Shown in pieces: positions 1 to 19,811 of a DNA stretch of 64,000 nt. The notes beneath the pieces were generated by a model. It saw only the letters and a list, made by a program, of their open reading frames with translations, ran no database searches and was not told the origin of the DNA. Position 1 is the first letter of the stretch. The number at the start of each line of letters is the position of its first letter. A program made the translations under genes and the position numbers. This DNA is from a bacterium (GTDB lineage: Bacteria; Patescibacteriota; CPR2; UBA1875; JAJYID01), in NCBI GenBank assembly GCA_030647205.1, contig JAUSJO010000005.1, positions 10,523-74,522 of the forward strand, in the 5' to 3' direction.

Positions 1-615
1 AAGGGAACAAAACTGCTTCTTGGTGCCCAAAACGTGGCGGAGGAGGAGAAAGGTGCTTATACCGGTGAAGTCTCTATCTTAGCGTTGAAGGGCTTCGTCA
101 AATACGTACTTGTTGGGCACTCAGAAAGAAGAAATATTTTCGGAGAAAATGACAAGGTTGTGGCGAAGAAAGCAGAAATAGTTGTCCGTCATGATATGGT
201 GCCGGTGATATGTATCGGTGAGACTCTCCACGAGAGAGAAGATGGTCTTTCAAAGGTGGTTACATTGTCTCAGCTTGAAGCTTCTTGCAAACATCTGACA
301 GGTGAAGAAATAGCAGAGAGCGTCATTGCCTATGAACCTGTTTGGGCTATTGGGACCGGTCAAGTTTGTGATGAGAAGGAGGCGGAGAAAATGGCAGCAG
401 ATATACGTGGGCTCATTCATTCTCTCTATGGGGAAAAGGCAGCTGAGAAGGTCAGAATCCTATATGGCGGAAGTGTGACTGGGAAAAGTGCGAAAGAAAT
501 GAAGGCTGCGAAAAATATTGACGGACTACTTGTTGGTGGCGCCAGTCTTGATCACAAAGAATTTACGGCAATAGTGAAGAATTATAGTTCGGAAATCTCA
601 GTCAAAAAAGGCTAA
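1..615 (+). CDS. tpiA: Triosephosphate isomerase, 5'-partial (gene begins upstream of the window)
   Basis: Frame 1 is open from nt 1 and reads KGTKLLLGAQNVAEEEKGAYTGEVS, with the TIM motifs GAQN and AYTGE. Downstream it reads VLVGHSERR, AYEPVWAIGTG, YGGSV and LVGGASL. The GTG at 34 is an internal codon, not the start. Confidence 0.9.
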   Translation, partial: KGTKLLLGAQNVAEEEKGAYTGEVSILALKGFVKYVLVGHSERRNIFGENDKVVAKKAEIVVRHDMVPVICIGETLHEREDGLSKVVTLSQLEASCKHLTGEEIAESVIAYEPVWAIGTGQVCDEKEAEKMAADIRGLIHSLYGEKAAEKVRILYGGSVTGKSAKEMKAAKNIDGLLVGGASLDHKEFTAIVKNYSSEISVKKG

Positions 616-618
616 TAA

Positions 619-954
619 ATGACAAAAAAAGTTAAAGTTCTTCTTGGAATATTAAGTATTTTACCTCTTATCACTGCTTTTGTAGTGCTTGGTCTTTTTG
701 TATATGCTGAATTTAATACACAGTCTTGGAGTGATGCAGATTTATTATTATTTATTATTGCTATATTGGTTGCTAATATATTCTATTATATGTCTCTTAT
801 TATTTTTATTATTAATATCTTTAAAAACGAAAAAGTACCAAAAAATCTTCAAATTGTCTGGCTTCTGCTTTTTTTGTTCTTTGGATATTATGTATTTCCC
901 GTCTATTGGTACCTATATATTTGGAGAGATAAGAGAGGAGGAGAGAGAAAATGA
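619..954 (+). CDS. Small polytopic membrane protein, PLDc_N-like (phospholipase-D N-terminal-type small membrane protein)
   Basis: ATG is 1 nt after the tpiA stop. The protein is hydrophobic, with the segment IVWLLLFLFFGYYVFPVYWYLYIWRDK. It ends in a 4-nt ATGA overlap with fba, preceded by a GGAGAGAGAAA RBS. The alternative-frame ORF 689..1018 is rejected. Confidence 0.5.
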   Translation: MTKKVKVLLGILSILPLITAFVVLGLFVYAEFNTQSWSDADLLLFIIAILVANIFYYMSLIIFIINIFKNEKVPKNLQIVWLLLFLFFGYYVFPVYWYLYIWRDKRGGERK

Positions 955-1814
955 TTGTTACGGCAAAAGATCTATTAACAAAAGCCAAAGAGGGCAAGTA
1001 CGCTGTCGGGGCGTTTAATACTTCAAGCTTAGAGATAACAAAAGGTATACTTCAGGCAGCGTATGAGCTAAAAACACCGGTTATTATCGAAACCTCGGAA
1101 GGGGAAGCAAACTTTGAAGGGTATCAAGTATTTGTTGATACGGTGCGTGATATAGCGGAGGAATTGGCAATAGACGTGGCAATTAACCTCGACCATGGAA
1201 AAAGTTTGGAATCAGTGAAGTATGCCATCGACTCAGGATACTCTGCTGTACACATAGATTGTTCAAAGATGGATTTAGCAGCTAATACTGATCTAACAAA
1301 ACAGGTAGTAGAAGTTGCTCATGCTCATAAAGTTTCGGTTGAAGGGGAACTGGGATATATAGGAGGAAGTTCGGAGGTGCATGAAGGTGAACAGCCAAAA
1401 CAGGAAATCATATTTACCGATCCGAAGGAGGCAGGGGAGTATATTAAAGCAACAGGGATTGATATCTTTGCCGGTTCATACGGCAATGTTCACGGTATTT
1501 ACAAAAATGAACCAAAACTTGATATAGAGAGAATAAAGAAAATATCCGATGTCTCGGGTATCCCGCTATCTTTACATGGTGGGTCTGGGATACCGGAAGG
1601 CCAGATAAAAGATGCTATTGGCGCAGGTATCTGTAAGATAAATGTAAATACGGAGATAAGAAAAGCATATAGAGAAGCGCTGGATAAAGCTTTAAGAGGG
1701 AAGAATGCGGAAATAGTACCGTATAAGTATCTCCCGGAAGCGATAAACGCTGTCAAAGAAGTGGTAAAAAAGAAAATCACCCTTTTTTCAAACGGCCACA
1801 TTTTTACAGAATAA
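951..1814 (+). CDS. fba: Class II fructose-1,6-bisphosphate (or tagatose-bisphosphate) aldolase
   Basis: N-terminus MIVTAKDLLTKAKEGKYAVGAFN. Later segments include ELKTPVIIETSEGE, LDHG and GSYGNVHG. Length is 287 aa. Confidence 0.85.
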   Translation: MIVTAKDLLTKAKEGKYAVGAFNTSSLEITKGILQAAYELKTPVIIETSEGEANFEGYQVFVDTVRDIAEELAIDVAINLDHGKSLESVKYAIDSGYSAVHIDCSKMDLAANTDLTKQVVEVAHAHKVSVEGELGYIGGSSEVHEGEQPKQEIIFTDPKEAGEYIKATGIDIFAGSYGNVHGIYKNEPKLDIERIKKISDVSGIPLSLHGGSGIPEGQIKDAIGAGICKINVNTEIRKAYREALDKALRGKNAEIVPYKYLPEAINAVKEVVKKKITLFSNGHIFTE

Positions 1815-1843
1815 AAAATTTATTCAACGTCAACTTTATAAAA

Positions 1844-1868
1844 ATTCGGTAGTTTCTACCGGATTTTT
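1844..1868 (+). terminator. Intrinsic terminator after fba
   Basis: AAAAATTCGGTAGTTTCTACCGGATTTTTG gives a 9-bp stem with one mismatch, a 3-nt loop and a T5 run. Confidence 0.5.
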
Positions 1869-2029
1869 GAATATGCGATATTTTTTTGTCCAATATTTTT
1901 TTAATCTAAAAACCCCTTGCATTATGTATGCATAAACTCTATTATTTTATGAGGAAAATAAATATAAAAACCCGCACACTGTTAATAAGGTATGGGTCAA
2001 GCAAAAACAAAAGGTAAACTTGGGGGGAT

Positions 2030-5000
2030 ATGCAAGTTTCAGCATACAAGAGCTTAGTCATAAAGACACTTATTCTAGCAGCCATACTCATGCTTGTGAG
2101 CGGCTCTTTTATTTATTTTATTACCCTCAAAAAAGTTGACCAGAAGTATAAAAACCAGCAAAGCAAGGGCGGCAGCGTACCTATCTCAGCCGAGGGACTC
2201 AAAGACGACTTCATTTCCCTTCAGCAGGAAACAGGCAGTCCGCAAGAAGGTGGCCTAAACATTACAGGCAATATCCAAACGCAAGGTTCTGTACAAGGTT
2301 CATCTGTGAGTGCCGACAGTTTGAATATCGGGAGTCTCTCGGGGACTCTAAAAGCTAACCAGGGAGTAGTCTCCGGAGGAGCCACAACCTCAGATGTGCC
2401 GGAAGGTGACAACCTTTACTATACAGATGAAAGAGCTAGGCAGGCCCAGGGTAGTAGTGCTAAAAATACGGATGATATTACAGAGGGTACAAACAAATAC
2501 TATACAGATGAAAGAGCAAGAAGCTCTATCTCCGGCAGCTCATCAATCAATTACAATTCCACAACCGGTGCTGCTTCTCTCTCAAACAGCGGAGTTACCT
2601 CAGGGACTTATGGTGACAGCACTCATGTCGGACAATTCACAGTAGATGCGCAGGGAAGAGTGACATCAGCAGCAACGGTACTCATTACCGGAGCCGCACC
2701 AACCGGAGCAGCAGGCGGAGATCTCACCGGCAACTATCCAAATCCAACCATCAGCAACTCTTGGGGTGGTACAACAGGGATAAATACACTGGGAACTATC
2801 ACTACCGGAACATGGAACGGCACAGCTATCCAAGACACATACATAGCAACATCAGCCAACTGGAACACGGCTTACTCTGAAAGAAATCAGTGGGACGGCG
2901 GAGCAACAGGACTGGTTGCCGCAACCGGTAGAACTTCCCTTGGTCTTGGATCTTTAGCTACACTGAGCTCTGTTAATAACGGCAACTGGTCAGGAACTGC
3001 TCTTGCAGTTGCAAACGGCGGAACCGGAGCAACTGATGCGGCAGGGGCTAGGACAAATCTGGGGCTAGGCAGTGTCGAGAATACAGCTCTTTCGACTTGG
3101 GCGGGTTCATCGAATATTACGACCCTTGGGACAATAGGGACGGGTATCTGGAATGGTGCAGCCATTCAAGATGCAAATATCGCCTCATCTGCAAACTGGA
3201 ATACGGCCTACTCGGAAAGAAATCAGTGGGATGGAGGTTCGACAGGGCTAACCGCGGTAACCGGTAGAACATCGCTTGGTCTTGGCGATATTGCCACTCA
3301 GAGCTCTTCCGCAGTTTCCATTAGTGGTGGAGCGATCACGGGGACAACAACATTCAACGCCGGGGCAGTAACCTCTTCTGGAGTCGTGCAAGGAACAGCG
3401 GTTATCTCGCCGAGTGTTTATGGGTCGTCATCGGCTTCGGGGAATTTGTCTATCGAAAGTACCTCAAACGCAACCAAGGGTAATATTGCTATTGCTAGCA
3501 ATGGCGGCAATGTTGGTGTAGGTACAGCTACTCCGGATGAAAGGCTAACCATTGCCGGCAATGTAAAACAAGTTGCTTCGGGTAATCCAACTGTTCAGTC
3601 TACTTATACTTCAGGGACGGCCACAGCAGGCGGGGTTTATGTCTCCGGAAACTATGCTTATCTGGCCGCTATGGGCGATGGACTTCTTGTTTCAAATATT
3701 TCAAACCCTTCATCTCCTGTGACGGTCGGGTCATATAACACGGATGGTTACGCCATTGACGTTTATGTCTCCGGCAAGTACGCCTATGTCGGCGAAACAA
3801 ACGGTTTGAAGATTATTGATATTTCAAATCCCGCGGTTCCCACACAAGTTGGTTCGTATGCCACGGCTGGATTGATAGAAAGCGTATATGTCGTAGGCAA
3901 GTACGCCTACCTTGCGAGTAATACCGCCGAAAACAAACTTTTGATAGTTGATATCTCAAACCCGGCCAGCCCGACCTTGAAGGGTTCGTACACTGCGACA
4001 GAAGGACCTGTTGGAGTATATGTAAATGGTAACTACGCTTATATCGCAGAAGGTGACATGAGTGCTCCTTATACATCGTCGCACTTAACGGTTGTAAATA
4101 TTTCAAACCCGGCCAGCCCAACCTTAGCCAGCACAGTTGTTATAAGCGGTGAAGCCGAAGAGGTATACCAGTCCGGAGGATACGTTTATGTTAGTATTTG
4201 GGATAAAGATAGTAACTTAGCATCTCGTATCGAAGTATATGATGTTTCTAATCCATCTGTTGCGCCGGTACTAAAAGACTCACAAACCGTCAGTGGTGAG
4301 GCGGCGTGGGGACTATATGTATCCGGTAAATATGCGTATGTGGCGGTGACAGACGTGACCGATCCCTGGACAGAGTCAAAACTTGAAGTGTTTGACATTT
4401 CCAATCCATCGGCTATTAGCACTATAGGCTCTGTGAGTGTTCTCGGGTCGCCTTGGAACCTGAAGGTATCCGGTAAATACGCATATGTAACAGCCCTTAA
4501 CGCTGCCGGAAGCCCAATGCAGATTATAAATATCAATGGGATGGAAGCATCTGCTCTCAGCGTTGGCAATGTACAAAGTGGTAACATTATAGTGACGGAA
4601 AATATGGATATCGGTAATACGCTCTCTGTCAAAAGCGGCATAAGTGTAGGCAGCCAAGGCATAAACAGTGCGGGAAGGCTGAGTGTAGGCAATGAGGCTT
4701 ATTTTCAGGGTAATGTAGGTATCGGTGATACAACACCTCTTTCGCTCTTTACAGTAGGTAGTGGGGATCTATTCCAGGTTAACTCGTCCGGACAAATCGC
4801 TGCGGTAGCCGGATATACTCAAGGTTCAGGTAACTTCGCCATCTCAGGCGCAGGAACATTTACTACCGGAACAGGGGCGATTTCACTACAGGGGGCAACA
4901 ACGATTGCGGCAGGGAAGAACCTTGCTTTAGCTTCTGGTACAGGTACCTTTGCTCAAACATACACAGGCACTGCGACTGCAGGAACTATTACAGCGAACT

Positions 5001-8000
5001 CACTTACGTCCGGAAAGATTCTATCTCTTACATCTTCCTCTACCGCGGCATCAACGGGAAACACAGGACTGAATATTGCTATATCGGGTGCCAATGGAAC
5101 TGCCGGTATTACGCGTTATGGCATGCAGTCTGCGGTGACGGCCACAGGTGCAACCAGTACCAATGTTGGCGGATATTTCTCAGCTTCCGGGGCAACGAAT
5201 AACTATGGGTTGGTTGTTAGCTCTGGTAGTGTTGGTATCGGCACAGTAACTCCGAACGAAAAACTAACTGTCACTGGCGGGACGATACTACAAACTATTT
5301 CGACTGACCCTGTAGTTGTAGGATCGTTAACTGATGCTGACATGAGTGGTGTTATGGGAGTCAAGGTGGTAGACAGATATGCTTATGCGGCATCGTATAG
5401 TTCAGGTACTCTTACTATTTTAGATGTTTCAAATCCAGCAAGTCCGGTGAAAAAGGGAGTTGCCAGAGGGGTCACGGCTGCAGTTGGTGTACAAGTCGTC
5501 GGTCAGTATGCATATGTAACTGAATATGCCACAGAAGGGGGGATGACGGTGGTTGACGTCTCTAACCCAACTTTACCAGTTGTAGTTGGCAAAGTTGGCG
5601 GTCTAGACCATGCATTGCATATATCTGTGTCAGGTAAATATGCATATGTTACTGCCGCAGGAAATAGCGCGACAGGGAACAAGATGGTTGTTATTGATAT
5701 CTCCAATCCTGAACTGCCAATCATAGTGGGAACCCTTAAAGACGATACGCACTTATACAAGGCCGACGGTCTATGGGTGGCTGGTAAATATGCTTATGTG
5801 GAGTCCCATTATGCTGTGGGAGAGTTAGCTCCGGACCCTGATGCTGACTATCTGAACGTTGTTGATATCTCAGATCCAACCAACCCAACACTAGTGTCGT
5901 CTTACTTAAGGGCTGAGTTTTCTGGAGCCGATGAGATGTATATTTCCGGCAGGTACGCATATCTTTGCGGGCTTTATTCGGACACCTTCTCCGTAGTTGA
6001 TATTTCCAATCCTAAGAGCTTATCAATAGTAGGTTCGGTACAGGATCACACGCGTCTTGACTTCATGCCTTGGACTTATGTGTCCGGTAAATATGCTTAT
6101 GTAGGGGGTAACAGTGGTGTGACAGTGCTGGATATTTCAAATCCAACAGCACCGGTCATAGTCGGAAATAACAACACAGTAACCGGCATTGACGAAGTAT
6201 ATGTATCGGGTAGATACATATATGCCGCAGCAAGTACAAATCTTTCCATATTAGATATTTTTGGTACGGATCTGCCATCTGCAAATATTGGTAATCTCAC
6301 TGTTACGGCCGCTCAGGTTGACGTGAATATAGTCGTCGGAAATGACGCATATGTAAAAAATGGTTTAAATGTAGGTGAAGGTGGGATTTTCACAAATGGC
6401 GAAATAAGCGCAGGCGGAGAAGTTACCACGCCCGGAGTTGTCATCGCAGAAACGATACCTAAGTTGCCTACAACATTCGCTGATTCTGTCGGTTTTGGAA
6501 GTACTACACCCACCTCAGTATTTGTTCAGGGAGAATTTGCATACGTTGTGAACCAGACCTATGATCTTCTTCTCATATATAATAAAGCAGATCTGGGTAC
6601 AGTTCTAGGATTTGTTGCCGTAGGCACCAACGCAAGCGCCAACCCAACATCAGTTTTTGTTCAGGGCAGTTATGCGTATGTAGCAAACAATAATAATGGA
6701 ATCGAGGTATTTGATGTTTCTAACCCGGCCGTACCAGCGAAGCGGGGGAATGCGGGGTTTGCAAGCTATAGCCCCACCTCAGTCTATGTCCAGGGCAACT
6801 ATGCATACTGGGTAAACCAAGCCTATGATTATATTTTGATCCATGATATATCAAACCCGAACTCACTTGTATTTAAAGGGTCGGTGCTCTCCGGCACTGA
6901 TCCCACCTCAGTCTTTGTTCAGGGTAACTATGCTTACATTACTAACAGCGCTGACGGCCTTAAGGTAGTCGATATCTCAAGCCCTACCGCCCCAGTTGAT
7001 GTCGGGAATGTAGGTCTGGCTGGAGCGCTGCCAAAGTCTGTTTATGTCCAAGGCAAGTATGCTTACATGGTCGGTCAAACAGCTGATACGCTCATAGTTT
7101 ATGATGTGTCTAACCCTGTCTCACCTACAAATATTGGCAGTATCGCCGCGGGCACTAATCCTACATCCGTTTTCGTCCAAGGCAGCTATGCCTATGTGAC
7201 CGATAGCGGTAAGCTCAAGGTGTATGACGTTTCTACGCCCAGTGCTCCTGCGAGCTTAGGGGACGTGTCCTCTGGCACAAATCCCACATCAGTTTTTGTT
7301 CAGGGGCAATACGCCTATGTGACCAATACTACTGACCAGCTATACAAGTTTGATATGGGTTCATATAACCAAGGTATTAGCACGGGCGGTCTAGATGTTA
7401 ATAAGGCACATGTTCATGGCAATGTGGATATAGTAACTGATACCGATGCCACGGCTACAGCAGTAAGAACCGGTACTACTGTCACGAGCGTGACTATAAC
7501 AAGTGGCGGTTCCGGGTATACTAAGGTGCCAAACGTATTCTTCAAAGGGGGTGCGGGTAGCGGAGCAGCTGCTCATGCTGTACTTACAAATGGTGTGGTT
7601 ACAAGCATTGTGGTTGATGCTGTTGGGTCTGGGTACACTTCTACCCCGACGGTTTACATAGAAGGGGGGAAAGGATTTTCATATAATGGCGATCTCTTGG
7701 TTGATGTCGCAAAAGTGGCTGGGAATGTAAAGATCATTGTTCCTTTGGCGGATACGACAGATGTTACTCCAAATGTTCATAATACCGCAATAGGATCGGG
7801 AGCATTTAGAGATAATACAACTGGTTACTATAATACAGCCGTGGGTACTGACGCTGGCATGATGTGGACGACTGGTTACTATAATACTGCTCTTGGTGCT
7901 TGCGCCGGAGACCATATACAGGGCGGCTATTCAAACACTGCTGTTGGCATGGGGGCGCTGTCGGGACCGATTGGTGGTACAAGTGCAAGTATGAACTCAG

Positions 8001-9403
8001 CATTTGGAGATAATGCTCTCACATCTAACACTGGCAATGGGAACACAGCTCTTGGCTACCAAGCAGGGAAAGCAAATACATCGGGTGCATATAATACTTT
8101 TATTGGCTATAATGCCGGATATACCGGCACAGCTGCAACGCTTCAGAAGGCGGCGGCCATTGGTTATAATGCTCAAGTCACTCAAGACAGCAGCATAGTC
8201 TTTGGTGGCACTGGTGTAGATGCGGTCAAAGTCGGCATAGGGTTAACAGCACCAACAGAGGTTCTGGATGTAGTAGGCAACATCAACATAAGTTCAGGTA
8301 GTAGCGTTAAAACTAATGGCCAGATATTTTTAAGAAATACAGGGGCCGCAGATTCCCCCGGATATAGCGATTATTCCAATATATTGCTTGGTGTTAATAG
8401 CGGCGCCAATCTTGCTCCAGCCGCAGGATGGTTAGGGGTTGCAAATACTGCAATCGGCAGAAATACGCTAAACGGCGTTACAACGGGTAGTAACAACGTA
8501 GCCATTGGGCTGGGAACAATGAATGGGGCGGGTACTACCGCTACTAGTAATACGGCTCTTGGTATGGGCGCGGGGGCTACTCTTCAGGGCAATCAGAATG
8601 TATTTATAGGTGATAACTCAGGTGGAGCTATTACGGGTTCGGGTAATGTAATGATTGGATATCAGGCCGGCAAACAAGCGGTTCAAACTGCTGTTTCAAA
8701 CAAGCTTTACATAGATAACTCAAATGACTCCACGCCGCTTATTTATGGTGATTTTAGTACTGATGCAATCACTATAAATGGAACCTTGGCATCAGGAACG
8801 GTGAATGGTCAGACCGTATCATCCAGCGCGAACTTTACGGGGACTGTCACGGTGGCTACATCTGTTTCAACTCCAACCATTACAACTTCGGGCGCCGGTA
8901 TATCATTTAACTCAAAGAATTTAACAAATGTGGGAACTATCGCTTCAAGTACTATCAATGGCCAAACTATATCTACATCGGCAAACTTTACCGGCACGCT
9001 CGCAGTTTCAAGTACTTCTTTGTTTAGTGCCAACATAACCGTAAATGGTCACATTATTACGGGTAATGCCAGTGGTACTACTACGGTAGCTGTCGGTGCT
9101 GCTGCAGGAACGGGTGGAAGTGTTGGGGCGAGCATTGTGGGTAATGATACTGCCGGATATGTGACAATTACCACGGGGAACGCTTTAACCACTACCACGG
9201 GCACTATGGCAACCGTTACTTTTGCAAATGCTTATGGGGCTACGCCAAAGGCAGTGATTCTGACGCCGCAAGGCAATACAAACGGATCAAGTGTTAACTA
9301 TTATGTAGGTAGTGCCGGAACTACAACATTTACCATAAATACAGGAACAGTCCCTACGGGTGGAGGTAACACCTATATCTACAACTATATGATTATGCAG
9401 TAG
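2030..9403 (+). CDS. Giant surface protein (2457 aa) with an N-terminal signal-anchor, tail-fibre-like G/T/N-rich repeats, three blocks of LVIVD beta-propeller repeats and C-terminal Hep_Hag-like NTAxG repeats
   Basis: GGGGGG RBS 8 nt upstream. A TM helix lies at residues 12-32. The units GKYAYV...VDISNPASP and SVFVQGxYAYV...DVSNP recur more than 20 times and match the LVIVD consensus. Segments [20 protein letters not shown] and NTAVGxxAG are present. No internal stops over 7.4 kb. Confidence 0.8.
2800..3300 (+). repeat. Intragenic tandem duplication (~165 nt units, ~75% nt identity) encoding [46 protein letters not shown]
   Basis: Read directly: about 2806-2968 versus about 3130-3292. Confidence 0.6.
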
Positions 9404-9579
9404 CATGCTTTATACGGCTATCGATCTGGCACTCTAATTTATAGAATAAATAATTTATTCATCGCCAAAATTTAAATAATTCGGTATTTTTGCCGGATTA
9501 TTTATTTTCTAAATAAACCTTTAAGCCCTTGACTCGTTGGTAGAAAAACCATTATTATTGTGCTGTAATTAAAATAGAT

Positions 9580-12500
9580 ATGATCCTTGGGGTTATGAAG
9601 GCCATAAAAATAAAAAAGCTATTGATAAAATGTTTTCTTCTAGTTGCAGTACTTGTGATTGGTGGGTATTTTTCAGTGTTCCAGCTTGCCATCCAAAAGG
9701 CTGAAGAAGTTCGACATAAAAATCAAACCGAACTCACCAATACAAAACAGAAGTTAGACCAGGATATTCAGGCAGTAAAGAAAGATTTATCTTCATCTAT
9801 AACAAACAGAGGATATACAGAGATGAGCGCAGATCAGTTTACTTCGAAAGAAATAACATCTGGGCAGATTACTTCGGGTCAACTGACAGCATCAAGCGGC
9901 GTAAACATACAGGGTAGTCTTGCGGCAGATAGTCCGGTTCAGTCATCCGCTACTCTGGCGGCAAGTGTAGACCCAGGGACCATTTCCATATATCATGACG
10001 GATCGAACGGACACGTGGAAACTAATAGGGGGAGTATATTTCTTACGCCCGCAAACGGCTATCTAAGATCGGATGGCAATCTTTACCCTAAAACAAACAA
10101 CACTTACAACCTTGGTGTTTCTGGCTGGATGTGGAAAGACATTTACCTCCAAGGGAGTCTCCGGGATAGCGGCAACTCAGCGGCTGGGGTCACTGTTGCA
10201 GATTTGAGAAATGCGAAAAACCATATGTATACAAACGGATCAAGTCACTCTTGGCTTGGCCAAAGCTTAAGGATAGAAAACTCGCCGACGTTTAGGGGAC
10301 TTACATTAAACGGAAACTTATCTCTCGGGACAAATACCTTAACCACTACAAACGCTACGGTTGTAGCCAATCTGAATGCAGACACTTTGGACGGTTATCA
10401 TGCTGCCGATCTTCTAAGCGGAGTTTTGCCTCCCGGGGGAACAACATCTGACTATTTGAGAGGAGACAATACGTGGCAAGCTTTGAATTCATCGGCCGTT
10501 CAGGGTCTTGGGGCACTTGCAACCATTGATACGATTAACAACGGACAATGGTCAGGGACAGCTCTCTCGGTTGCAAATGGTGGTACGGGCGCTACTCTTG
10601 CAGTAGACGCGAGGACGAACCTGGGGCTTGGTACTTTGGCAGTTGAAGATGCCGCAACTTGGGCAGGATCAACGAGCATTGCGACAGTCGGAACCATTAC
10701 GACAGGCACTTGGAACGCAGGAGCCCTAACTTCCTCGGGAGCTATACAGGGCACATCATTGAATATTTTTGGGAACGCTGATGCAACGCATGTTATTGTT
10801 AGGGCGAATGCCACACAAAGTAATACTAATCCGCTTATCAGCATCCAGGCAAGCGATGGTGCAGAACTATTTAGAATTCATTCAGATGATATAGACAATA
10901 TATTCATAGGACGTGACGCAGGTATGAACAATGTTGCAAATCCGAGTACTAGCGCAGGTAACTACAATACTTTTCTGGGATATACTGCAGGAAGGAATAA
11001 TACATCAGGACATTACAATACTTACCTAGGAAACAGATCAGGTGCCCTCACAACCTCGGGAGATCACAATACCTTTGTTGGGATGCAGTCAGGGTATAAC
11101 AACACAACTGGGCAATATAATAATTTTTTTGGCATAACGGCCGGCCAAGACTTAACTGATGGAGATCATAATTTGGCATTAGGTTCTTACGCTCAGTTTG
11201 GTTTGGTAACTGGTGAAAGTAACATGTCTATTGGTAACTATGCAGGCTATAACAGACTTCTGGCTAGAGCGAACATACTACAAGGATACGGCGCTGGCGG
11301 TTCAGGAAAAGCCGGTGCCTATAATACGGCTGTTGGAGATAATACTTTATATAACGATTATACGGGGATGGGTAATGCGTCATTTGGTGCTTATTCTTTA
11401 TATAATAATAAAGGGACAAGTGATAGAAGCATAACCGGTTTTAGCGCCAGTGGTGGAAATACAAAAGTTACGACACTTACTAGTCACGGTCTTCAGGTCA
11501 GTGACTCGGTATTTATAGCATTTAATGATACTACTCAAACTGAAGTTACAAAATCAGGGAAGTACACAGTTTTAACTGTTCCCGATGCCACAAGCTTCAC
11601 AATTAGCAAAACTTACGATTCTGCAAATGATAAGAAGGGATGGTGGGAACGAGGAGCAACCTTCTCTGATAATGGAAGCGGTAAAGTAAGGGTAATTTCA
11701 AACAATCATGGTGTTCCTAACGGAGGCATGGTAGCTCTTGGTTACAGCGGAACCGGAGTTACGGGAGGTTATTATAAGGGCTTGCAGGTGGCAACTCTGG
11801 TTGATGCTAATACATTTGATTTGACAGATCTAAGCTATACAGCAAGCGTTACTTCCGGTTGGTTTTTTTATGAAGATGACGCTATAAATAACACGGCAAT
11901 CGGAACTTTGGCGGGATATGCAAATACTACCGGTATAAATAATACATTTCTTGGATATAAATCAGGAATGACGTCTACTGCGACTCTCCAGAATGCCGCA
12001 GCGATTGGCTACAATGCTCAAGTCACTCAGAATAGCTCCATTGTTCTTGGTGGTACAGGGGCTGACGCTGTTAATATCGGGATAGGGACTACGGCTCCTC
12101 TCGAAAAGATACATGTTGACCATGGTAATATGCGACTTGATCAAGAAGCGGCTCCCGGAGCACTAACAGCAACCGTAACTGCGACAGCGGGCAATCCAAA
12201 TGGTACTTACCAATATGCCGTTACTTTTGTGACCGCCGATGGCGAAACTGAGGCTGGTACCGCTAGTACGGCTGTGTCCCCAGCTCTTAAACAGGTTAGT
12301 TTGACAAATATCCCTCTTGGTTCAAGTAAAGTAACTGCTAGAAAGATTTATAGGAGTTCAGAGGGGGAACATTGGGCGGGATATACAAATAAAGTGAGAA
12401 ATGCCAAACTAGTCACTACTCTTGCCAATAATACAGCGACGACATATACGGATAATGTTGCCGATGGATCGCTTGGCGCCGCCGCCCCATACAATAATAC

Positions 12501-14346
12501 TACCGGAGGAAGTATAATGAACGGCACTGTGACTGTTATGGAAGCAGACCAAGGAGTTACAAGATTAGGCTATAATGCTGGTAGCGTAAATAAGGGTGCG
12601 AGCAATACATTTATAGGGATCAACTCTGGCCAGAACAATACTACGGCTGACTACATAACTGCTGTCGGAATAAATTCTTTACAGTCAAATACTTCAGGTT
12701 GGTACAATGTTGCTCTTGGAGCACATACTCTCTCATCTAATGTTGATGGCTATAGTAATGTTGCTATAGGGACAAACACCTTACATAGTAATGTTTCGGG
12801 AGACAACAATACAGCCGTTGGCACAGATGTTCAAAGAGATACTACTGGCAACAACAACACCTCGATCGGTTCACACTCTTTGCATTTTACTACTACAGGG
12901 AGCAACAATGCTGCTGTTGGAGATTTTTCACTTTATTCAAATCTTACGGGGAGCCGCAACTCTACCAGCGGATCAATGGCTCTCTACTCAAATTCGACTG
13001 GGAGCAATAATTCTGCTATTGGATATTTGTCCCTCTTTAGTAATACTATCGGCGGCTTCAATGTCGCCAACGGCATCGACTCCCTTGGTAGTACAAACCC
13101 GACAGCCAGTGGAACTATAACGGCATTTGCCAACTCTCCTACCGAACCGGGAGTAAAGACCCAGGTGACATCAGCCGGACACGGCAGGTCAAACGGCGCT
13201 CTGGTTACTATTTATGATCCTACCGCTGCCTTTAACTCCTCGGTATATAAAGGTATCTGGGTAATTTCCAATGTCGCAGCAAATACCTTTGATATTACTA
13301 AGGTTTATTCCGCAGAGGCGGCAGGCGGCAGTAAGTGGGTAGTAGGAGGCGGGAATACGGCTCTCGGAGGTTCATCTGGTTATGCTAATACTACCGGTAC
13401 AGGCAATACTTTCCTTGGCTATAACGCAGGGGCTACCTCAACTGCAACCCTCCAAAATGCTACAGCCATCGGATATAACGCTCAGGTTACGGCAAGTAAC
13501 TCTATTGTGCTTGGTGGTACAGGCAGTACAGACTCGGTAAATGTTGGTATTGGAACAACGGCGCCGACGACTATGCTGGATGTCAGACAGTCGGTCAATG
13601 GCACAAATATAGTAAATATCCAGCGTGTCACAGATACCTCACCAACCGGTCATCTTCTAGACTTCAAGACTGCTGCTGGGGGAACATTAACTTACTTTAA
13701 TAGTTACGGAAACTATGTAGGGGTAGCGTTGCAAGAATTGTATACAACAGCTTCACCGACTTACTTTGAGGCTAACTCATGGGTCATACAAGGAAGTGGG
13801 ACAGGTCCTACTAGGATTGGTTCAAGTAATAATAAAAACATAGAGCTTTACCCGCAGGGGACCGGCAGTCTTTTAGTCAAAGGAACGATGGCCGCGCTTG
13901 GGCCAAACAGTTCTGCATATACTGCGTCCAAGTCAACAACGACGATAACTGCAACCGTTGGAACATTTTCGGCTGCCGATGTTGGGAAATACTTTATCTG
14001 GGGTGACTCCGGAGGTACAACAGATAGAATAACAGGATACACAGACGCCACCCACGTTACCGTTGCAGATAGTGGCACCATGACCTCGCAGACAGGATAT
14101 GTAAGAGTAACAAACTTATACGTTACTTTGGCAACTGGCAATATTGGTATAGGTACAAATAATCCAACCGAGAAACTGGAAGTGAATGGTGGTATGCGTT
14201 TAAATACTACAACGGCTAAACCAACCTGTGATGCTACACATCGCGGCACTTTCTGGGTGAACCAAGGCGCAGCAGGAGTTAAGGACGATGTAGAGGTTTG
14301 TGCCAAAGATGCTGCTGACGCCTATGCGTGGAGAACTATTTACTAA
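9580..14346 (+). CDS. Giant surface protein paralog (1588 aa) with N-terminal signal-anchor, tail-fibre-like repeats and Hep_Hag-like repeats; no LVIVD blocks
   Basis: It shares near-identical segments with the 2030..9403 protein: [40 protein letters not shown] (twice), [31 protein letters not shown] and GIGTxxPTEKLxV. The start may instead be the ATG at 9595 (TGGGGT 5 nt upstream). Confidence 0.8.
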   Translation: MILGVMKAIKIKKLLIKCFLLVAVLVIGGYFSVFQLAIQKAEEVRHKNQTELTNTKQKLDQDIQAVKKDLSSSITNRGYTEMSADQFTSKEITSGQITSGQLTASSGVNIQGSLAADSPVQSSATLAASVDPGTISIYHDGSNGHVETNRGSIFLTPANGYLRSDGNLYPKTNNTYNLGVSGWMWKDIYLQGSLRDSGNSAAGVTVADLRNAKNHMYTNGSSHSWLGQSLRIENSPTFRGLTLNGNLSLGTNTLTTTNATVVANLNADTLDGYHAADLLSGVLPPGGTTSDYLRGDNTWQALNSSAVQGLGALATIDTINNGQWSGTALSVANGGTGATLAVDARTNLGLGTLAVEDAATWAGSTSIATVGTITTGTWNAGALTSSGAIQGTSLNIFGNADATHVIVRANATQSNTNPLISIQASDGAELFRIHSDDIDNIFIGRDAGMNNVANPSTSAGNYNTFLGYTAGRNNTSGHYNTYLGNRSGALTTSGDHNTFVGMQSGYNNTTGQYNNFFGITAGQDLTDGDHNLALGSYAQFGLVTGESNMSIGNYAGYNRLLARANILQGYGAGGSGKAGAYNTAVGDNTLYNDYTGMGNASFGAYSLYNNKGTSDRSITGFSASGGNTKVTTLTSHGLQVSDSVFIAFNDTTQTEVTKSGKYTVLTVPDATSFTISKTYDSANDKKGWWERGATFSDNGSGKVRVISNNHGVPNGGMVALGYSGTGVTGGYYKGLQVATLVDANTFDLTDLSYTASVTSGWFFYEDDAINNTAIGTLAGYANTTGINNTFLGYKSGMTSTATLQNAAAIGYNAQVTQNSSIVLGGTGADAVNIGIGTTAPLEKIHVDHGNMRLDQEAAPGALTATVTATAGNPNGTYQYAVTFVTADGETEAGTASTAVSPALKQVSLTNIPLGSSKVTARKIYRSSEGEHWAGYTNKVRNAKLVTTLANNTATTYTDNVADGSLGAAAPYNNTTGGSIMNGTVTVMEADQGVTRLGYNAGSVNKGASNTFIGINSGQNNTTADYITAVGINSLQSNTSGWYNVALGAHTLSSNVDGYSNVAIGTNTLHSNVSGDNNTAVGTDVQRDTTGNNNTSIGSHSLHFTTTGSNNAAVGDFSLYSNLTGSRNSTSGSMALYSNSTGSNNSAIGYLSLFSNTIGGFNVANGIDSLGSTNPTASGTITAFANSPTEPGVKTQVTSAGHGRSNGALVTIYDPTAAFNSSVYKGIWVISNVAANTFDITKVYSAEAAGGSKWVVGGGNTALGGSSGYANTTGTGNTFLGYNAGATSTATLQNATAIGYNAQVTASNSIVLGGTGSTDSVNVGIGTTAPTTMLDVRQSVNGTNIVNIQRVTDTSPTGHLLDFKTAAGGTLTYFNSYGNYVGVALQELYTTASPTYFEANSWVIQGSGTGPTRIGSSNNKNIELYPQGTGSLLVKGTMAALGPNSSAYTASKSTTTITATVGTFSAADVGKYFIWGDSGGTTDRITGYTDATHVTVADSGTMTSQTGYVRVTNLYVTLATGNIGIGTNNPTEKLEVNGGMRLNTTTAKPTCDATHRGTFWVNQGAAGVKDDVEVCAKDAADAYAWRTIY

Positions 14347-14805: not shown

Positions 14806-17325
14806 ATGATAAATCCGGCACAGATAAAATTTACAAAAAGGGCTAGCAGAGTAAATGCGGCAAAGCTAGCTAATATGCTAGGTAAGCATTTTTTCATACT
14901 TGTGCTCGATATCTTTGCTTTTTTAGGAATTTTTGCTGTTCTTTTTCTCCTGGCAGACGGATTTGTGTTGCATGTAGGAGCGCTACTTACCTTACCGTCA
15001 AAGATATTTCTGTTTATTGGGCTCAAATCTTTTGTAATCTCTCTGTTTGTTAAAAGTTATTTTAGGGAGATTGAAGATGGTATTAAGATTCCTGATAATC
15101 CTCCCGCGTATGAAGTCTTTGACATTTGCGACCTTGAGACTATAAGGATCTTGGATTCAATCAATATGACAACTCCTGATGTTATAGACTTTTATAAAAA
15201 GCTTCTCGGGACAAGAAGGGTTGGTTTTATTGCCGATGAGATGGGCATGAATGACGATTTTAACAAGAAGATGTTCTCAGGCTTGCAAAGGGAACAGAAC
15301 ATCTTGCCCCAAGTATTTGCTTATGCCATTGAAAATGCAATAAATGAAAAATCGAAGTTTATTACGGCAGCTGATGTATTTTATGGATTTATAAAGATGA
15401 GTGCTACTTTAGACCAAGCACTTATGTCCATCGAGATAAGTGAGGATGATCTCTCAAATATAATTTTTTGGGCAAACAGCCTTTTCCAGAAAATATACTA
15501 TCCTAAAACGCTGCTTGATAAGTTTCATGCAAAAAATGCCGGTCTGGCTGAGGGTTGGGCATCAGGCTACACCCTTTTCCTTGATAGGTTCAGCACAGAT
15601 ATAACAAACCCGGCTTATTTTGGTAGTTTCTCATCTTTGGGGAGGGAAAAGATACTCGCTCATATGGAGAACACCCTTTCAAAAGAGGCTAAGAACAACT
15701 GTATTTTGACCGGTGAAGCGGGTGCCGGGAAGACTTCTTTGGTTTATGGCTTTGCTGAGAAAATATATTGGGGAGACACAATTCCGGAACTTTCTCACAG
15801 TAGAGTTGTATCTCTTGATGCATCTACACTTCTATCCGGGTCGTCTGATCCGGGCGAAATACACGAAAGACTTCTTGGCGTTTTAAATGATGCGATTCAT
15901 GCGGGCAATGTGATTCTTTTTATAGATAATATTCACGATCTCTTTGCGGGCGGAGGGGAGAAAGTAGGAACCATTGATGCTTCAGAGATCATTGCTCCAT
16001 ATCTGCAAAGCAGTAGTCTTAGAATCATCGGGATTTCGGATAATGCTCATTATCAGACATATATAGTTCCCCATACTCAGATATCCGGCAATATGGAGAG
16101 AATAGAAGTGCCACCGACAGATGAGAACCAAACTGTAAGGATACTTGAGGATCTAAGTCTTTATTTCTCGGGCAAGTTTGGTCTCAGGATTACTTATAAT
16201 GCTCTGAAAGAAGTGTATAAACTTGCCGAAAGATTTGTTGCCGAAAAAGGATTCCCCGCACGCGCTGTCGATATGTTGGAGAATGTTTGTACTTCAGCAA
16301 AGAACTCAGGTAGCAAAGTTTTGGACAGGCATGTAATAGATAAGCTAGCCGAGAGTACACTAAATGTTCCCATCCAGGAAGCCGAGGGTGATGAAAGAGA
16401 AAAGCTTTTGAAGCTGGAAGAGAAGCTTCACTCCAGGGTTATCGGGCAGGATGAGGCGGTAAAGGCTATATCACAAGCTCTGCAACGTGCCAGGACTCAG
16501 GTGACGGACACAAAAAGGCCGATCGGGACGTTTCTTTTCTTGGGTCCGACCGGTGTAGGAAAAACAGAACTTACAAAGGCGCTTGCCTGGGCATATTTTG
16601 GCAATGAAGAAAACATGGTCAGGATGGATATGAACGAGTTCCAAGACGCAGCATCGGTGGATAGGTTTATCGGTCGGCAAATGCCTGGGAGCGAGAAGCT
16701 TGAAGGCGGTGACTTTGTTAAAAAGGTCCGCGAGAAACCGTTTTCAGTTATTCTTCTTGATGAGCTTGAAAAAGCTCATCCGGATATCTTAAATTTATTC
16801 TTGCAAATCTTAGATGAAGGATACTTCACTGATGGTATGGGCTCTAGAGTATCTTTCCAAAACTCTATCATCATTGCCACCTCAAATGCCGGAGCAAACC
16901 TAATCCGTGAGGGGGTTGCCGGCGGCAAGACCTCAGACAGTTTAAAGGGGGAACTGCTGAACTATCTTCAGGCAGAGGGAATTTATAAGCCGGAGTTTTT
17001 GAACAGATTTGACGGGGCAATTGTCTTTAAGCCATTAACAAAGATAGAACTTTTGAAGATTGCCGGGCTGATGTTTGAAAAGACTTGTGCAAGTTTAAGG
17101 CAAAAAGGCTATGTTATTCAGATAGACTCGTCCGCGCTAGAGAAACTGGTAGAGTGGGGGTATCAGCCTGAGTTTGGAGCAAGGCCTATGCGCAGGGTGT
17201 TTCAGGATAAGTTGGAAAGCATGTTGGCGAAGAAGATTTTGGAGGGTACTGTCCAAAAGGGCGCACCTTTCACGGTTAAGCTGACGGATTTGGAGGATAC
17301 AACTCAAGCAGTTGGAAATATGTAA
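14806..17325 (+). CDS. Membrane-anchored ClpA/ClpB-family double AAA+ ATPase (TM hairpin, Clp_N-like repeats, D1 and D2)
   Basis: D1 Walker A is GEAGAGKTS. D1 Walker B reads ILFIDNIHDL, with DN in place of DE. D2 Walker A is LFLGPTGVGKTELTKALA, D2 Walker B is ILLDELEKAH, and the sensor is GARPMRR. TM helices lie at residues about 28-80. There is no long M-domain between D1 and D2 and no IGF/IGL loop. Confidence 0.8.
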   Translation: MINPAQIKFTKRASRVNAAKLANMLGKHFFILVLDIFAFLGIFAVLFLLADGFVLHVGALLTLPSKIFLFIGLKSFVISLFVKSYFREIEDGIKIPDNPPAYEVFDICDLETIRILDSINMTTPDVIDFYKKLLGTRRVGFIADEMGMNDDFNKKMFSGLQREQNILPQVFAYAIENAINEKSKFITAADVFYGFIKMSATLDQALMSIEISEDDLSNIIFWANSLFQKIYYPKTLLDKFHAKNAGLAEGWASGYTLFLDRFSTDITNPAYFGSFSSLGREKILAHMENTLSKEAKNNCILTGEAGAGKTSLVYGFAEKIYWGDTIPELSHSRVVSLDASTLLSGSSDPGEIHERLLGVLNDAIHAGNVILFIDNIHDLFAGGGEKVGTIDASEIIAPYLQSSSLRIIGISDNAHYQTYIVPHTQISGNMERIEVPPTDENQTVRILEDLSLYFSGKFGLRITYNALKEVYKLAERFVAEKGFPARAVDMLENVCTSAKNSGSKVLDRHVIDKLAESTLNVPIQEAEGDEREKLLKLEEKLHSRVIGQDEAVKAISQALQRARTQVTDTKRPIGTFLFLGPTGVGKTELTKALAWAYFGNEENMVRMDMNEFQDAASVDRFIGRQMPGSEKLEGGDFVKKVREKPFSVILLDELEKAHPDILNLFLQILDEGYFTDGMGSRVSFQNSIIIATSNAGANLIREGVAGGKTSDSLKGELLNYLQAEGIYKPEFLNRFDGAIVFKPLTKIELLKIAGLMFEKTCASLRQKGYVIQIDSSALEKLVEWGYQPEFGARPMRRVFQDKLESMLAKKILEGTVQKGAPFTVKLTDLEDTTQAVGNM

Positions 17326-17375
17326 AGAAAAGTGTAAAATTAGTCGTAAGTTAAAGTTTAGAAAGTGGAGGGTTC

Positions 17376-19811
17376 ATGGCAGAAACAAAAAATATACTCT
17401 GGTTTTCAGAGGTTGGAAAAGATGACGGTAAATATGTTGGTGGTAAGGGCGCTAATCTTGGTGAACTGACAAATGCTGGCTTTCCTGTGCCGGGAGGTTT
17501 TATTGTTACCGCGCAGGCATATTTTGATTTTCTTGGGAAAACAGATTTGAAATCTAAAATATCTGAAATTTTAAAGGGATTAAACGTAGAAGATTCAAAA
17601 GACTTGCAAGATAGGGCGGTAAAAGTGCAAGAACTAATCAAAAAAGCGGATTTCCCCGAAGATTTAGCCCATGAAATTGTTCAAAACTATCATAAACTCG
17701 CTAAAGAGACAGGCACCGAGAAGAAAGATCTTTATGTGGCTGTTCGTTCCAGTGCCACGGCTGAAGATTTAGCTGATGCTTCATTTGCCGGTCAGCAAGC
17801 TACTTATTTAAATATCCTAGGCGATATACCGGTTCTTCATGCGGTGCTAAAGTGCTGGGCGTCTCTCTTTGAAGCTAGGGCTATTTACTACCGTGAAGAC
17901 AAAGGGTTTGACCAGTTAGAAGTTGGCATAGCTGTACCGGTTCAGAAGATGGTCAACTCTGAAAAAGCTGGTGTTATGTTCACTATTGACCCGACAAACA
18001 ACGATATGGATCATATTTCAATTGAAGCAGCTTACGGACTTGGCGAGGTGGTGGTTTTGGGCGCCGTAACCCCCGACAGGTATCTGATTGATAAGAAAAC
18101 GAAAGAAATTACTGACAAGGAAATTCATAAGCAAACATGGATGCTAACCCGTGAAGGCGGAGATGCTGATACAGATGATACTACAGATATTTCAAAAAGT
18201 GGCGTGCCGGTGCCTGATGAAAAACAGGATGCACAAAAACTGACTGATGACGAAATTGCACAACTAGTTGAGCTTGCACTAAAGATTGAGGAGCATTATG
18301 GCAAGCCGCAGGATACAGAGTGGGCGACTGAGGGTGGAAAAGTATATATGGTTCAGTCTAGACCAATAACGACGCTTGGCGATAGCGGTGCAACAGACGC
18401 GAGCGCAAACTCGGAACCAGAGGCTCAGACAAGCTCTAGTCCAAGCGCCGGCCAGGATATTTCTCAAGCAGAGATTATCTTAAGGGGATCAGCAGCATCT
18501 GTAGGGCTTAACGGCGGTCCGGTAAAGATTATCCATTCACCAAGCGAAATAGATAAAATCCTTGAAGGCGATGTTTTAGTAACAGAAATGACTACTCCGG
18601 ACTTTGTGCCGGCCATGAAGCGAGCATCGGCAATCGTTACTGATGCAGGAGGAAGAACTTGCCACGCAGCCATAGTATCGCGTGAACTTGGTATCCCTTG
18701 TGTAGTAGGGACGGAAACAGCGACCACAACATTACAAAATTACCCGGAAGTTACCGTAGACGGAAAAACGGGAGCGGTTTATGCGGGACTTATTAAAGTA
18801 AAAGAACAACCAGTTCAAGATCCTGGCCAAGTTGCTAGCCAAGCAGCTCCGATTGTAACGGCGACGAAAATTTACGTTAATCTTGGTGAGCCAGAGTTGG
18901 CAGAAAAGATCGCGGCAAAAGATGTAGATGGAGTCGGACTTTTAAGGGCTGAATTCATTATTATGGAGTCTATCGGCGAACATCCGAAGAAAATGATTAA
19001 AGAAGGTCGGCAGGAAGAATACATTACAAAACTGGCTCAAGGACTTGAAACTTTTGCTCGTGCCTTTGACCCGCGGCCAGTGGTTTACAGAGCAACAGAC
19101 TTTAAAACTAATGAATACAGAGGTCTAAAGGGTGGGGAAGAGTTTGAGCCGGAGGAGGATAATCCGATGATCGGCTATCGCGGTTGTTTCAGGTATTTGA
19201 AAGACCCTGAGGAGTTCTCATTAGAGCTTGAGGCAATTAAACGTGTGAGATCAAACTTCAAAAACCTACATCTTATGATTCCATTTGTAAGGCGTACAGA
19301 TGAATTCCAAAGAGTAAAAGAAATGGTAGAAAACAGCGGACTGAACAAAGCCACCGATCCGGACTTCAAGCTTTGGATAATGGTAGAGGTTCCGTCAGCT
19401 GTCATCGAAATAGAAAAATATTGTCAGATGGGAATTGATGGAGTTTCAATCGGTTCAAACGACCTCACGCAGTTAGCATTGGGGCTGGACAGGGACTCAA
19501 GTACCGTGGCTGAGGAGTTTGATGAGAGATATCCGGTGGTGCAGTGGATGATAAAAAGAACGGTAGAAACTTGCCGCGAATATGGAGTTACTTGTTCTAT
19601 TTGCGGTCAGGCACCGAGCGTTTACCCTGAAGTGGCTCAAAAAATGGTAGAGTATGGTACGACATCAATCTCTGTGAATCCGGATATGATAGAGCAAACC
19701 AGAAAAATGGTAGCGTCAGTAGAAGAAAAGCTGATCTTAAAAGAAATGTCTGATGTTCAACAAAAATTATCCGAGCTGGAGCATAAAATAAGCGAACAAA
19801 CGAACAGTTAG
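17376..19811 (+). CDS. ppsA: Phosphoenolpyruvate synthase (pyruvate, water dikinase)
   Basis: N-terminus GGKGANLGELTNAGFPVPGGFIVT in the ATP-grasp domain. The mobile His domain reads GGRTCHAAIVSRELGIPCVVG. The C-terminal PEP-utilizing domain reads IGSNDLTQLALGLDRDS. Length is 811 aa. Confidence 0.85.
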   Translation: MAETKNILWFSEVGKDDGKYVGGKGANLGELTNAGFPVPGGFIVTAQAYFDFLGKTDLKSKISEILKGLNVEDSKDLQDRAVKVQELIKKADFPEDLAHEIVQNYHKLAKETGTEKKDLYVAVRSSATAEDLADASFAGQQATYLNILGDIPVLHAVLKCWASLFEARAIYYREDKGFDQLEVGIAVPVQKMVNSEKAGVMFTIDPTNNDMDHISIEAAYGLGEVVVLGAVTPDRYLIDKKTKEITDKEIHKQTWMLTREGGDADTDDTTDISKSGVPVPDEKQDAQKLTDDEIAQLVELALKIEEHYGKPQDTEWATEGGKVYMVQSRPITTLGDSGATDASANSEPEAQTSSSPSAGQDISQAEIILRGSAASVGLNGGPVKIIHSPSEIDKILEGDVLVTEMTTPDFVPAMKRASAIVTDAGGRTCHAAIVSRELGIPCVVGTETATTTLQNYPEVTVDGKTGAVYAGLIKVKEQPVQDPGQVASQAAPIVTATKIYVNLGEPELAEKIAAKDVDGVGLLRAEFIIMESIGEHPKKMIKEGRQEEYITKLAQGLETFARAFDPRPVVYRATDFKTNEYRGLKGGEEFEPEEDNPMIGYRGCFRYLKDPEEFSLELEAIKRVRSNFKNLHLMIPFVRRTDEFQRVKEMVENSGLNKATDPDFKLWIMVEVPSAVIEIEKYCQMGIDGVSIGSNDLTQLALGLDRDSSTVAEEFDERYPVVQWMIKRTVETCREYGVTCSICGQAPSVYPEVAQKMVEYGTTSISVNPDMIEQTRKMVASVEEKLILKEMSDVQQKLSELEHKISEQTNS

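Follow-up and report, generated by a model that had tools for sequence, protein, structure and literature searches.

A giant LVIVD-repeat protein with phage-fibre-type modules, a putative surface adhesin of a CPR bacterium

Architecture of the 2457-residue protein

The 64-kb stretch of bacterial DNA analysed here (the window, from contig JAUSJO010000005.1) carries at 2030-9403 a gene for a protein of 2457 amino acids (aa) in which three blocks of LVIVD repeats are embedded between modules of phage-fibre type. Its open reading frame (ORF) starts with ATG and spans 2457 codons, giving a reading length of 7,374 nt without internal stops, and extension upstream is ruled out because an in-frame TAA lies at 2015-2017. 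A G-rich run directly precedes the ATG. The codons just 5′ of it (2018-2029) read T-W-G-D, and homologues whose annotated N-termini are longer show ...(R/L)GDMQ at this place; either the G-rich ribosome-binding region is conserved in DNA or the starts of these homologues have been called too far upstream. DNA repeats inside the gene are only 60-78% identical, so that collapse or mis-joining of repeats during assembly is unlikely. In the NCBI database the identical protein bears the title 'MAG: hypothetical protein Q7S53_03085 [bacterium]' and belongs to a contig of 279,812 bp. Gly, Thr, Ser and Ala together make up 46% of its residues, and Cys 0.1%.

An earlier reading of this DNA, made without database searches (the sequence-only reading), had assigned the repeats to LVIVD. 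Comparison with Pfam bore out this assignment, the LVIVD model (PF08309) matching 17 stretches of the protein (E=2.2e-126) with 411.4 bits where the cut-off is 20.2; the related Pfam model Beta_propel also scored above its cut-off. Motif search and alignment of the units resolved 21 repeats with the consensus xVYVxGxYAYV...LxVxDISNPxxP, arranged as three blocks of seven (Table 1). All 21 are in frame and have conserved hydrophobic cores, and the pattern is not attributable to chance. The limits first proposed for three propeller-sized blocks (residues 540-830, 1090-1420 and 1500-1790) were correct, as was the variant SVFVQGxYAYV noticed in block 3, while the proposed seven to eight blades per propeller resolve to exactly seven.

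Modelling of a segment of a few hundred residues had been suggested as a check. AlphaFold2 (AF2), given aa 505-870 and an alignment of 17 propeller cassettes of this type, returned a closed propeller of 28 strands, or seven times four, with a pLDDT of 84.8 and a pTM of 0.86. Foldseek comparison of this model with PDB gave seven-bladed propellers at E ~1e-11 and TM ~0.65-0.70, including beta-TrCP, TLE1, BamB and a Sphingobium phosphotriesterase (5hrm); the model is thus similar to seven-bladed propellers that bind ligands. The seven-bladed fold predicted for cassette 1 can be taken as settled; function does not follow from the fold.

A hidden Markov model (HMM) of 355 positions, built from the three blocks and their flanks, matched related giant proteins end to end, one to three times each. 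Each propeller and its flanking VGIGTxxP...LTV and post-propeller motifs therefore constitute a discrete cassette. Blade identities are flat, at 31-41% both within and between blocks. We accordingly found no evidence of recent blade amplification or of duplication of a whole propeller, and these identities, together with the divergence of the repeats in DNA, indicate that the blocks are old. Cassette 3 matched phrog_22523 (function unknown) at E=9.5e-32 and counts P0051 among its closest partners. TIGR04312 (choice-of-anchor B) reached 104.8 bits against the NCBIfam cut-off of 100 only when the scores of three partial stretches were added, the best of which falls in cassette 2 and spans profile positions 51-224 of 364. 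Members of that family are expected, from its name, to carry a C-terminal sorting or anchor signal; a signal of that type is absent from the present protein, which ends in ...YIYNYMIMQ.

Hydrophobicity points to a single possible anchor. Kyte-Doolittle windows of 19 aa scoring >1.6 are confined, in the whole protein, to window starts aa 3-18 and mark a putative signal-anchor or transmembrane helix. Neither a C-terminal hydrophobic tail nor an LPXTG-like motif occurs in the protein, and Pfam detected no SLH domain in it; a search for sortase or S-layer anchoring signals, as the sequence-only reading had recommended, thus left only the N-terminal helix. A type IV pilin-like N-terminus was excluded by inspection, the G/F-T-L-I-E type motif being missing.

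Beyond the helix, the shaft contains GGTGAxDAAxARxNLGLG-type repeats, on which its match to a phage SU10 'putative tail fiber' rests (7z47_D against aa 149-382, E=1.7e-9), and a unit of ~70 aa is duplicated within it (nt 2760-2971 and 3096-3307, repeat D3). A shaft cassette recurs at 64% identity in the giant protein encoded by the next gene. The spacer between propellers 1 and 2 is likewise a mosaic cassette, since its residues 925-1075 are shared at 75% identity with P0067, an otherwise unrelated giant protein.

Past the third propeller, phrog_460 matched aa 1800-1953 (E=3.6e-11). Two blocks of 'NTAxG' repeats follow, each closed by a VGIGxTAP or an LYIDNS...PLIYGDF motif, and cassettes of this region recur at 65-66% identity in the neighbouring giant protein. 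Tblastn with aa 1908-2256 matched genes for tail fibres, tailspikes or appendages in 32 GenBank phage records (30-45% identity, E 1e-6 to 1e-11), from Pelagibacter, Roseobacter, SPO1-like Bacillus, Achromobacter and E. coli phages. The LVIVD segments gave no match at E<=1e-5 in 50,697 GenBank phage records. Of the phage-fibre character that had been ascribed to the N-terminal 450 and C-terminal 600 residues, aa 149-382, aa 1908-2256 and the last ~110 residues stood and the full stretches did not; the Hep_Hag comparison proposed along with it was negative, Pfam showing no match of the protein to Hep_Hag or YadA_head (E<=0.1), nor to the YadA anchor or Peptidase_S74.

Table 1. Features of the gene and its surroundings, with the best partner of individual segments among the relatives (P numbers)
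Feature	Nucleotides	Residues	Strand	Basis	Best partner (identity)
Complete gene for the 2457-aa protein	2030..9403	1-2457	+	intact ORF; stop TAG 9401-9403	
Family-conserved N-terminal region including 19-residue juxtamembrane motif	2030..2419	1-130	+	51-63% identity to P0022, P0048, P0049, P0002	P0048/P0049 (62-73%, N-terminus)
Sole hydrophobic segment, putative signal-anchor/transmembrane helix	2054..2128	~9-33	+	Kyte-Doolittle	
Two copies of 13-residue fibre-type motif	2393..2520		+	repeat D9, 74% identity in DNA	
N-terminal fibre-like shaft	2417..3541	130-504	+	SU10 match, repeat D3	
LVIVD propeller cassette 1	3542..4639	505-870; blades ~521-835	+	Pfam, unit alignment, cassette HMM, AF2, Foldseek	
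Block 1 G-x-Y-A-Y motif starts		540, 582, 623, 667, 716, 766, 815		motif search	
Ser/Thr/Gly/Ala-rich spacer between propellers 1 and 2	4535..5266	836-1079	+	VGIGTxTPxEKLTV motif at its end	P0067 (75%, aa 925-1075)
LVIVD propeller cassette 2	5267..6364	1080-1445	+	Pfam, unit alignment, cassette HMM	P0002/P0005 (42-43%)
Block 2 G-x-Y-A-Y motif starts		~1115, 1158, 1202, 1252, 1307, 1353, 1394		motif search	
LVIVD propeller cassette 3, SVFVQGxYAYV variant	6425..7474	1466-1815	+	motif search, unit alignment, cassette HMM	P0022 (41%)
Block 3 G-x-Y-A-Y motif starts		1501, 1546, 1589, 1632, 1675, 1718, 1759		motif search	
Tandem 'SGGSGYT...P.V' region	7472..7741	~1815-1904	+	P0009, P0071 the only partners in segment comparison	
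Two 'NTAxG' repeat blocks	7742..8839	1905-2075, 2130-2270	+	resemble YadA head/beta-roll	P0009 (61-77%, aa 1905-2270)
Short fibre repeats 'INGQTxSxSANFTGTxxV'	8837..9061	2270-2344	+		
Conserved C-terminal beta-sandwich domain, putative distal tip	9062..9400	2345-2457	+	AF2 and profile search	P0002 (73%)
Terminator-like hairpin and T-run, 3′ of gene	9473-9504		+	consensus scan only	
Promoter-like site before next giant gene	9529-9558			consensus match only	
Adjacent paralogous giant surface protein, 1588 aa, Q7S53_03090	9580..14346		+	own N-terminal helix	

Relatives and the family of the C-terminal domain

Relatives were collected by scanning one genome of each species for sequence patterns, among them the 19-residue juxtamembrane motif. 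The scan returned 73 loci, mostly from Saccharibacteria/Saccharimonadales, Uhrbacteria, Paceibacterota, Peribacteria and other CPR, with some from Babeliales, DPANN-like archaea and other metagenome-assembled genomes (MAGs). Loci that matched through to the C-terminal domain were mainly from Saccharibacteria. The 2457-aa protein forms a singleton cluster, and full-length relatives exist. In the closest of these (P0022, P0002, P0005 and P0051) the N-terminus, consisting of the helix and the 19-residue motif, and the last ~110 residues are conserved and the middles differ. The best partner changes from one segment to the next (Table 1), a pattern that, as judged from these alignments, is cassette mosaicism as in phage fibres.

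The propellers appear to take part in this exchange. P0072 and P0091 have Kelch propellers in a scaffold of this kind, and the 3385-aa protein of locus L018 (8093-18250) combines FG-GAP with LVIVD; the giant relatives carrying Kelch or FG-GAP come from Saccharibacteria and Paceibacterota. This suggests that LVIVD, Kelch and FG-GAP cassettes, of which relatives carry one to three, are interchangeable within one scaffold. Tandem arrays of giant genes recur as well, with products of 1162+847+1209+2343 aa at L013 and 3385+1622 aa at L018. Peptidase_S74 is present in relatives P0053, P0054, P0083 and P0084, and some relatives end in it.

The last ~110 residues of the closest relatives follow the pattern ...VNGHIITGN...(18 residues)...TTFTINTG...YxYxYMVMQ, and no Pfam, NCBIfam or PHROG model matched this part of the 2457-aa protein. 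A profile of the domain, searched against 1.84 billion cluster representatives, found 5,932 carriers at E<=1e-3 and 2,420 at E<=1e-10, ranging from 138 to 2,909 aa. In the best 150 of the 5,932 the domain always stands at the extreme C-terminus, with a usual ending of two hydrophobic residues and Q/E (V[IVM]Q). Small proteins of 212-272 aa carry it too, and two of them (P0123 and P0124) are encoded on phage-like contigs: the first directly after a match to phrog_1887 'tail protein' and ~5 kb before an amidase endolysin, the second on a contig of 54 kb that carries HNH and HTH genes among short ORFs lacking annotation. In BFVD the domain matched two proteins of uncultured Caudovirales at 31% identity (E 6e-7 and 1.9e-5). 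These matches make it a candidate new family common to phage-like and cellular proteins.

Comparison with solved structures was less productive. The C-terminal 667 aa had no match to PDB sequences at E<=10, and the domain profile gave only non-significant PDB matches to a beta-agarase module (E 0.013) and to Mu gp45 (E 1.1). An H-type lectin or gp53-like fold, considered because of a sequence motif, had too little support to be assigned: just 1-2 of 50 family members weakly match H_lectin or Gp53-like_C, and 2ccv and 4mtm rank low in Foldseek.

Two loci on phage-like contigs, with small carriers of 229 or 250 aa, resemble each other in gene order. At L075 (3044-5407) the carrier immediately follows a ~549-aa protein matching phrog_1887 'tail protein'; at L074 (170-3196) a carrier lies near a ~549-aa protein, with one 207-aa HNH gene in between. 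A 118-aa protein follows the carrier in both, and the arrangement has the look of a tail module conserved within some uncharacterised group of phages.

A putative membrane-anchored adhesin and its alternatives

On balance, though with considerable reserve, we regard the 2457-aa protein as a membrane-anchored mosaic surface fibre, shuffled by cassettes, and as a putative multivalent adhesin of a CPR bacterium. The single N-terminal helix would hold it in the cytoplasmic membrane in type II orientation, and the ~2,400 remaining, almost cysteine-free residues would project outward. From the membrane, a shaft of phage-tail-fibre type would be followed by the three spacer-separated propellers, the 'NTAxG' region resembling a beta-roll and the ~110-residue beta-sandwich as the tip. 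The propellers and the distal domain would probably be the ligand-binding parts, and the protein would therefore act as a multivalent adhesin toward another cell surface or matrix. Like the phage modules that it resembles, it is possibly trimeric. The family would diversify by swapping cassettes between conserved ends.

Several observations weigh against this reading. Lys is more frequent after the helix than before it, so the charge distribution leaves the orientation ambiguous, although the 1588-aa paralogue encoded by the next gene has a clear positive-inside flank N-terminal to its helix. The AF2 model of the C-terminal domain, a seven-strand beta-sandwich, is of moderate quality (pLDDT 71, pTM 0.63), and Foldseek found no significant PDB match for it (none below E 0.5). 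The propeller matches in Foldseek are generic, at ~10% identity, and LVIVD membership gives no function because, to our knowledge, a ligand has been demonstrated for no member of the family. The list of taxa among the 73 loci is biased by the search patterns used.

A surface location would agree with what has been reported for the family. LVIVD repeats were defined in archaeal and bacterial cell-surface proteins, first in Methanosarcina (Adindla et al. 2004, PMC2447325), and proteins with these repeats are counted among the surface proteins (PMC2447325; bioRxiv 10.1101/2022.05.06.490989). The present protein shares with them units of 42-50 aa, the motif G-x-Y-A-Y ... (L/V)xVxD(I/V)SNP, predicted propellers and a presumed extracytoplasmic location; it differs in having three separate seven-bladed cassettes, set in a scaffold like that of phage fibres, and in having no anchor other than an N-terminal helix.

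The same precedent can be turned toward a structural role. As an envelope or S-layer-type protein, the giant would form a coat or spacing layer without recognising a specific ligand, and the first LVIVD proteins, from the Methanosarcina cell surface (PMC2447325), a Gly/Thr/Ser/Ala-rich and cysteine-poor composition typical of surface-layer proteins and the presence of two such giant genes in tandem would all suit that role. We nevertheless consider it unlikely. No SLH or other wall-binding domain was found by Pfam, the modules are of the phage receptor-binding-protein type, and a singleton cluster whose relatives are highly mosaic and lack conserved synteny points to variable recognition proteins more than to a lattice protein that is conserved.

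A surface fibre of this kind might cut its target and not merely bind it. Some of the phage proteins matching aa 1908-2256 are annotated as tailspike or endo-N-acetylneuraminidase, a catalytic propeller (5hrm) is among the Foldseek matches of cassette 1, SBP56 matches weakly and so does the beta-agarase module to the C-terminal profile. The protein could on these grounds be a surface-anchored degradative enzyme, acting as a tailspike-like depolymerase or through a catalytic propeller on cell wall or on polysaccharide of the host or the environment. This is improbable, however, because the phage matches lie in the repeat region, outside any catalytic domain, the propeller matches are the generic ones described above, SBP56 reaches only 20.8 against a cut-off of 34, and neither Pfam nor NCBIfam detected a glycosidase, lyase or peptidase family.

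The likeness of the 2457-aa protein to phage fibres and tailspikes (SU10 7z47; Pelagibacter phage HTVC111P; SPO1 gp2.52 / CampHawk tailspike) consists of local homology over aa 149-382 and 1908-2256 and of cassette mosaicism, and the C-terminal domain adds homology to proteins of uncultured phages. Unlike these fibres, the 2457-aa protein is chromosomal, as the sequence-only reading had stated, and has no phage neighbours; it has a membrane helix, is 3-10 times longer and contains LVIVD blocks, which were not found in GenBank phage records. That it is the tail fibre of an integrated prophage, a tailocin or a contractile injection system, as several fibre- or spike-like modules and PHROG matches might propose, is highly improbable and was rejected on genomic context: phage, baseplate, sheath, integrase and lysis genes are all missing from the 64-kb window, all other genes of which are housekeeping, and the G+C content at third codon positions (GC3) of 0.395 lies within the 0.35-0.475 of the neighbours. 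With the membrane helix, this largely refutes a prophage origin. The G+C excess of the two giant genes lies wholly in codon position 2, and since GC3 is that of the neighbours, it reflects amino-acid composition rather than foreign origin.

A decayed pseudogene, the condition that had been named as counting against the initial proposal, or an assembly artefact can be dismissed as next to negligible: no observation spoke for either, and against them stand an intact, stop-free frame with 21 repeats in register, a confident predicted fold, full-length relatives and DNA repeats too diverged for misassembly to be likely.

Among known adhesins, trimeric autotransporter adhesins offer a partial parallel to the proposed surface fibre, as the short 'NTAxG' repeats resemble YadA-head or left-handed beta-roll units. 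The 2457-aa protein is nevertheless not a member of that family, since it has neither a Hep_Hag/YadA_head match nor a YadA anchor barrel and its anchor is N-terminal, not C-terminal. YadA_head scored 18.7 bits, below the cut-off of 25, in the neighbouring giant protein.

Giant Patescibacteria proteins named 'tail fiber domain-containing protein' at NCBI, such as P0083 and P0105, have in common with it the lineage, a similar range of sizes and the pairing of fibre repeats with LVIVD cassettes, which the cassette HMM matches end to end; P0053 and P0054 have three LVIVD blocks, as here. These proteins carry Peptidase_S74 (PF13884), which serves phage fibres of the endosialidase type as an intramolecular chaperone. 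It is missing from the 2457-aa protein, whose conserved terminal domain is another one, a beta-sandwich. Its components and general architecture are already in databases, and it adds one more example and no new principle.

Host attachment by such a fibre is plausible, by architecture and by analogy with cultivated Patescibacteria, which are obligate episymbionts (PMC12206443). In Southlakia epibionticum, transposon sequencing (Tn-seq) identified 'multiple adhesins' needed for epibiotic growth (Wang et al. 2023, PMC10633639). These envelope proteins would have the same role as that proposed here, binding of host-associated structures by an epibiont surface protein, in the same phylum-level lineage; they contain VCBS, dockerin and FN3 domains, however, and their role comes from Tn-seq, whereas that of the 2457-aa protein is deduced from its architecture.

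Type IV pili and a few 'adhesins' from Tn-seq make up most of what is known of how ultrasmall Patescibacteria find and hold their hosts, and giant mosaic surface proteins are obvious candidates for determinants of host range. A wider and tentative proposal, which we hold to be rather doubtful as it stands, is that episymbionts recognise hosts through a 'cellular tail fibre', a membrane-anchored fibre whose shaft and tip would come from a pool of modules common to it and to phage receptor-binding proteins and into which interchangeable propeller heads (LVIVD, Kelch, FG-GAP) would have been inserted. Exchange of cassettes between the conserved ends, possibly with phages, would then set and shift host range, and the C-terminal family would be a widespread receptor-binding tip of phages and cells. 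As a determinant of host range, such a fibre would be considerably more interesting if true. Phage-type fibre parts combined with swappable propellers suggest a testable route for the evolution of specificity. The most useful by-product of the analysis is the unannotated C-terminal domain, which, with thousands of protein clusters of phage-like and cellular origin, gives work on structure and binding a definite object.

Neighbouring genes of the window

The gene directly downstream encodes the paralogous giant Q7S53_03090, from which the 2457-aa gene would be separated by a terminator-like hairpin and a promoter-like site, both consensus matches only (Table 1). The two proteins have cassettes of 64-66% identity in common, and the paralogue contains many 'NTxxG' repeats, PHROG tail-spike and virion-structural matches and a Cys-containing C-terminal segment. 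The 2457-aa gene was also considered as the target of a diversity-generating retroelement, which was rejected because the window has no reverse transcriptase gene and because no template/variable repeat pair was found, the 3′ end of the gene taking part in no near-identical repeat.

Without the two giant genes, this part of the window would be a continuous run of glycolysis genes, with triosephosphate isomerase (TIM) and class II fructose-bisphosphate aldolase (FBA) upstream (34-1814) and a ClpB-like ATPase, pyruvate phosphate dikinase (PPDK)/PEP synthase, enolase, a phosphoglycerate mutase (iPGM) and PfkB downstream (14806-25038). Synteny with these glycolytic neighbours was conserved in none of the 73 related loci. 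The window further encodes an ADP-forming acetyl-CoA synthetase, POR, UvrD/PcrA, KsgA, MetRS, AlaRS, TatD, MnmA and CoA biosynthesis genes; tRNA genes are missing from it. By similarity of its AlaRS, the genome belongs to CPR/Patescibacteria: proteins named 'Patescibacteria group bacterium' match this AlaRS at 80% and 65% identity, and proteins of Pacebacteria, Komeilibacteria, Daviesbacteria, Moraniibacteriota and Falkowbacteria match it at ~60-63%.

The CoA biosynthesis genes form the only minus-strand block of the window (55459-58420), over which GC skew and AT skew flip locally. The block encodes the Flavoprotein and DFP halves as separate ORFs, a cytidylyltransferase-like protein and dephospho-CoA kinase, plus a transglutaminase-like protein. 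Three ORFs, at 45588-46976, 61073-62716 and 619-954 (462, 547 and 111 aa), had no significant Pfam or NCBIfam family, and an FtsA-like ORF at 59777-61036 scored below the FtsA and PilM cut-offs. Finally, two genes for SH3_3-domain proteins (25040-25855 and 44499-45569) share a 65-nt DNA repeat with 75% identity (25337-25401 and 45099-45163), and their products are probably paralogous wall-binding proteins.

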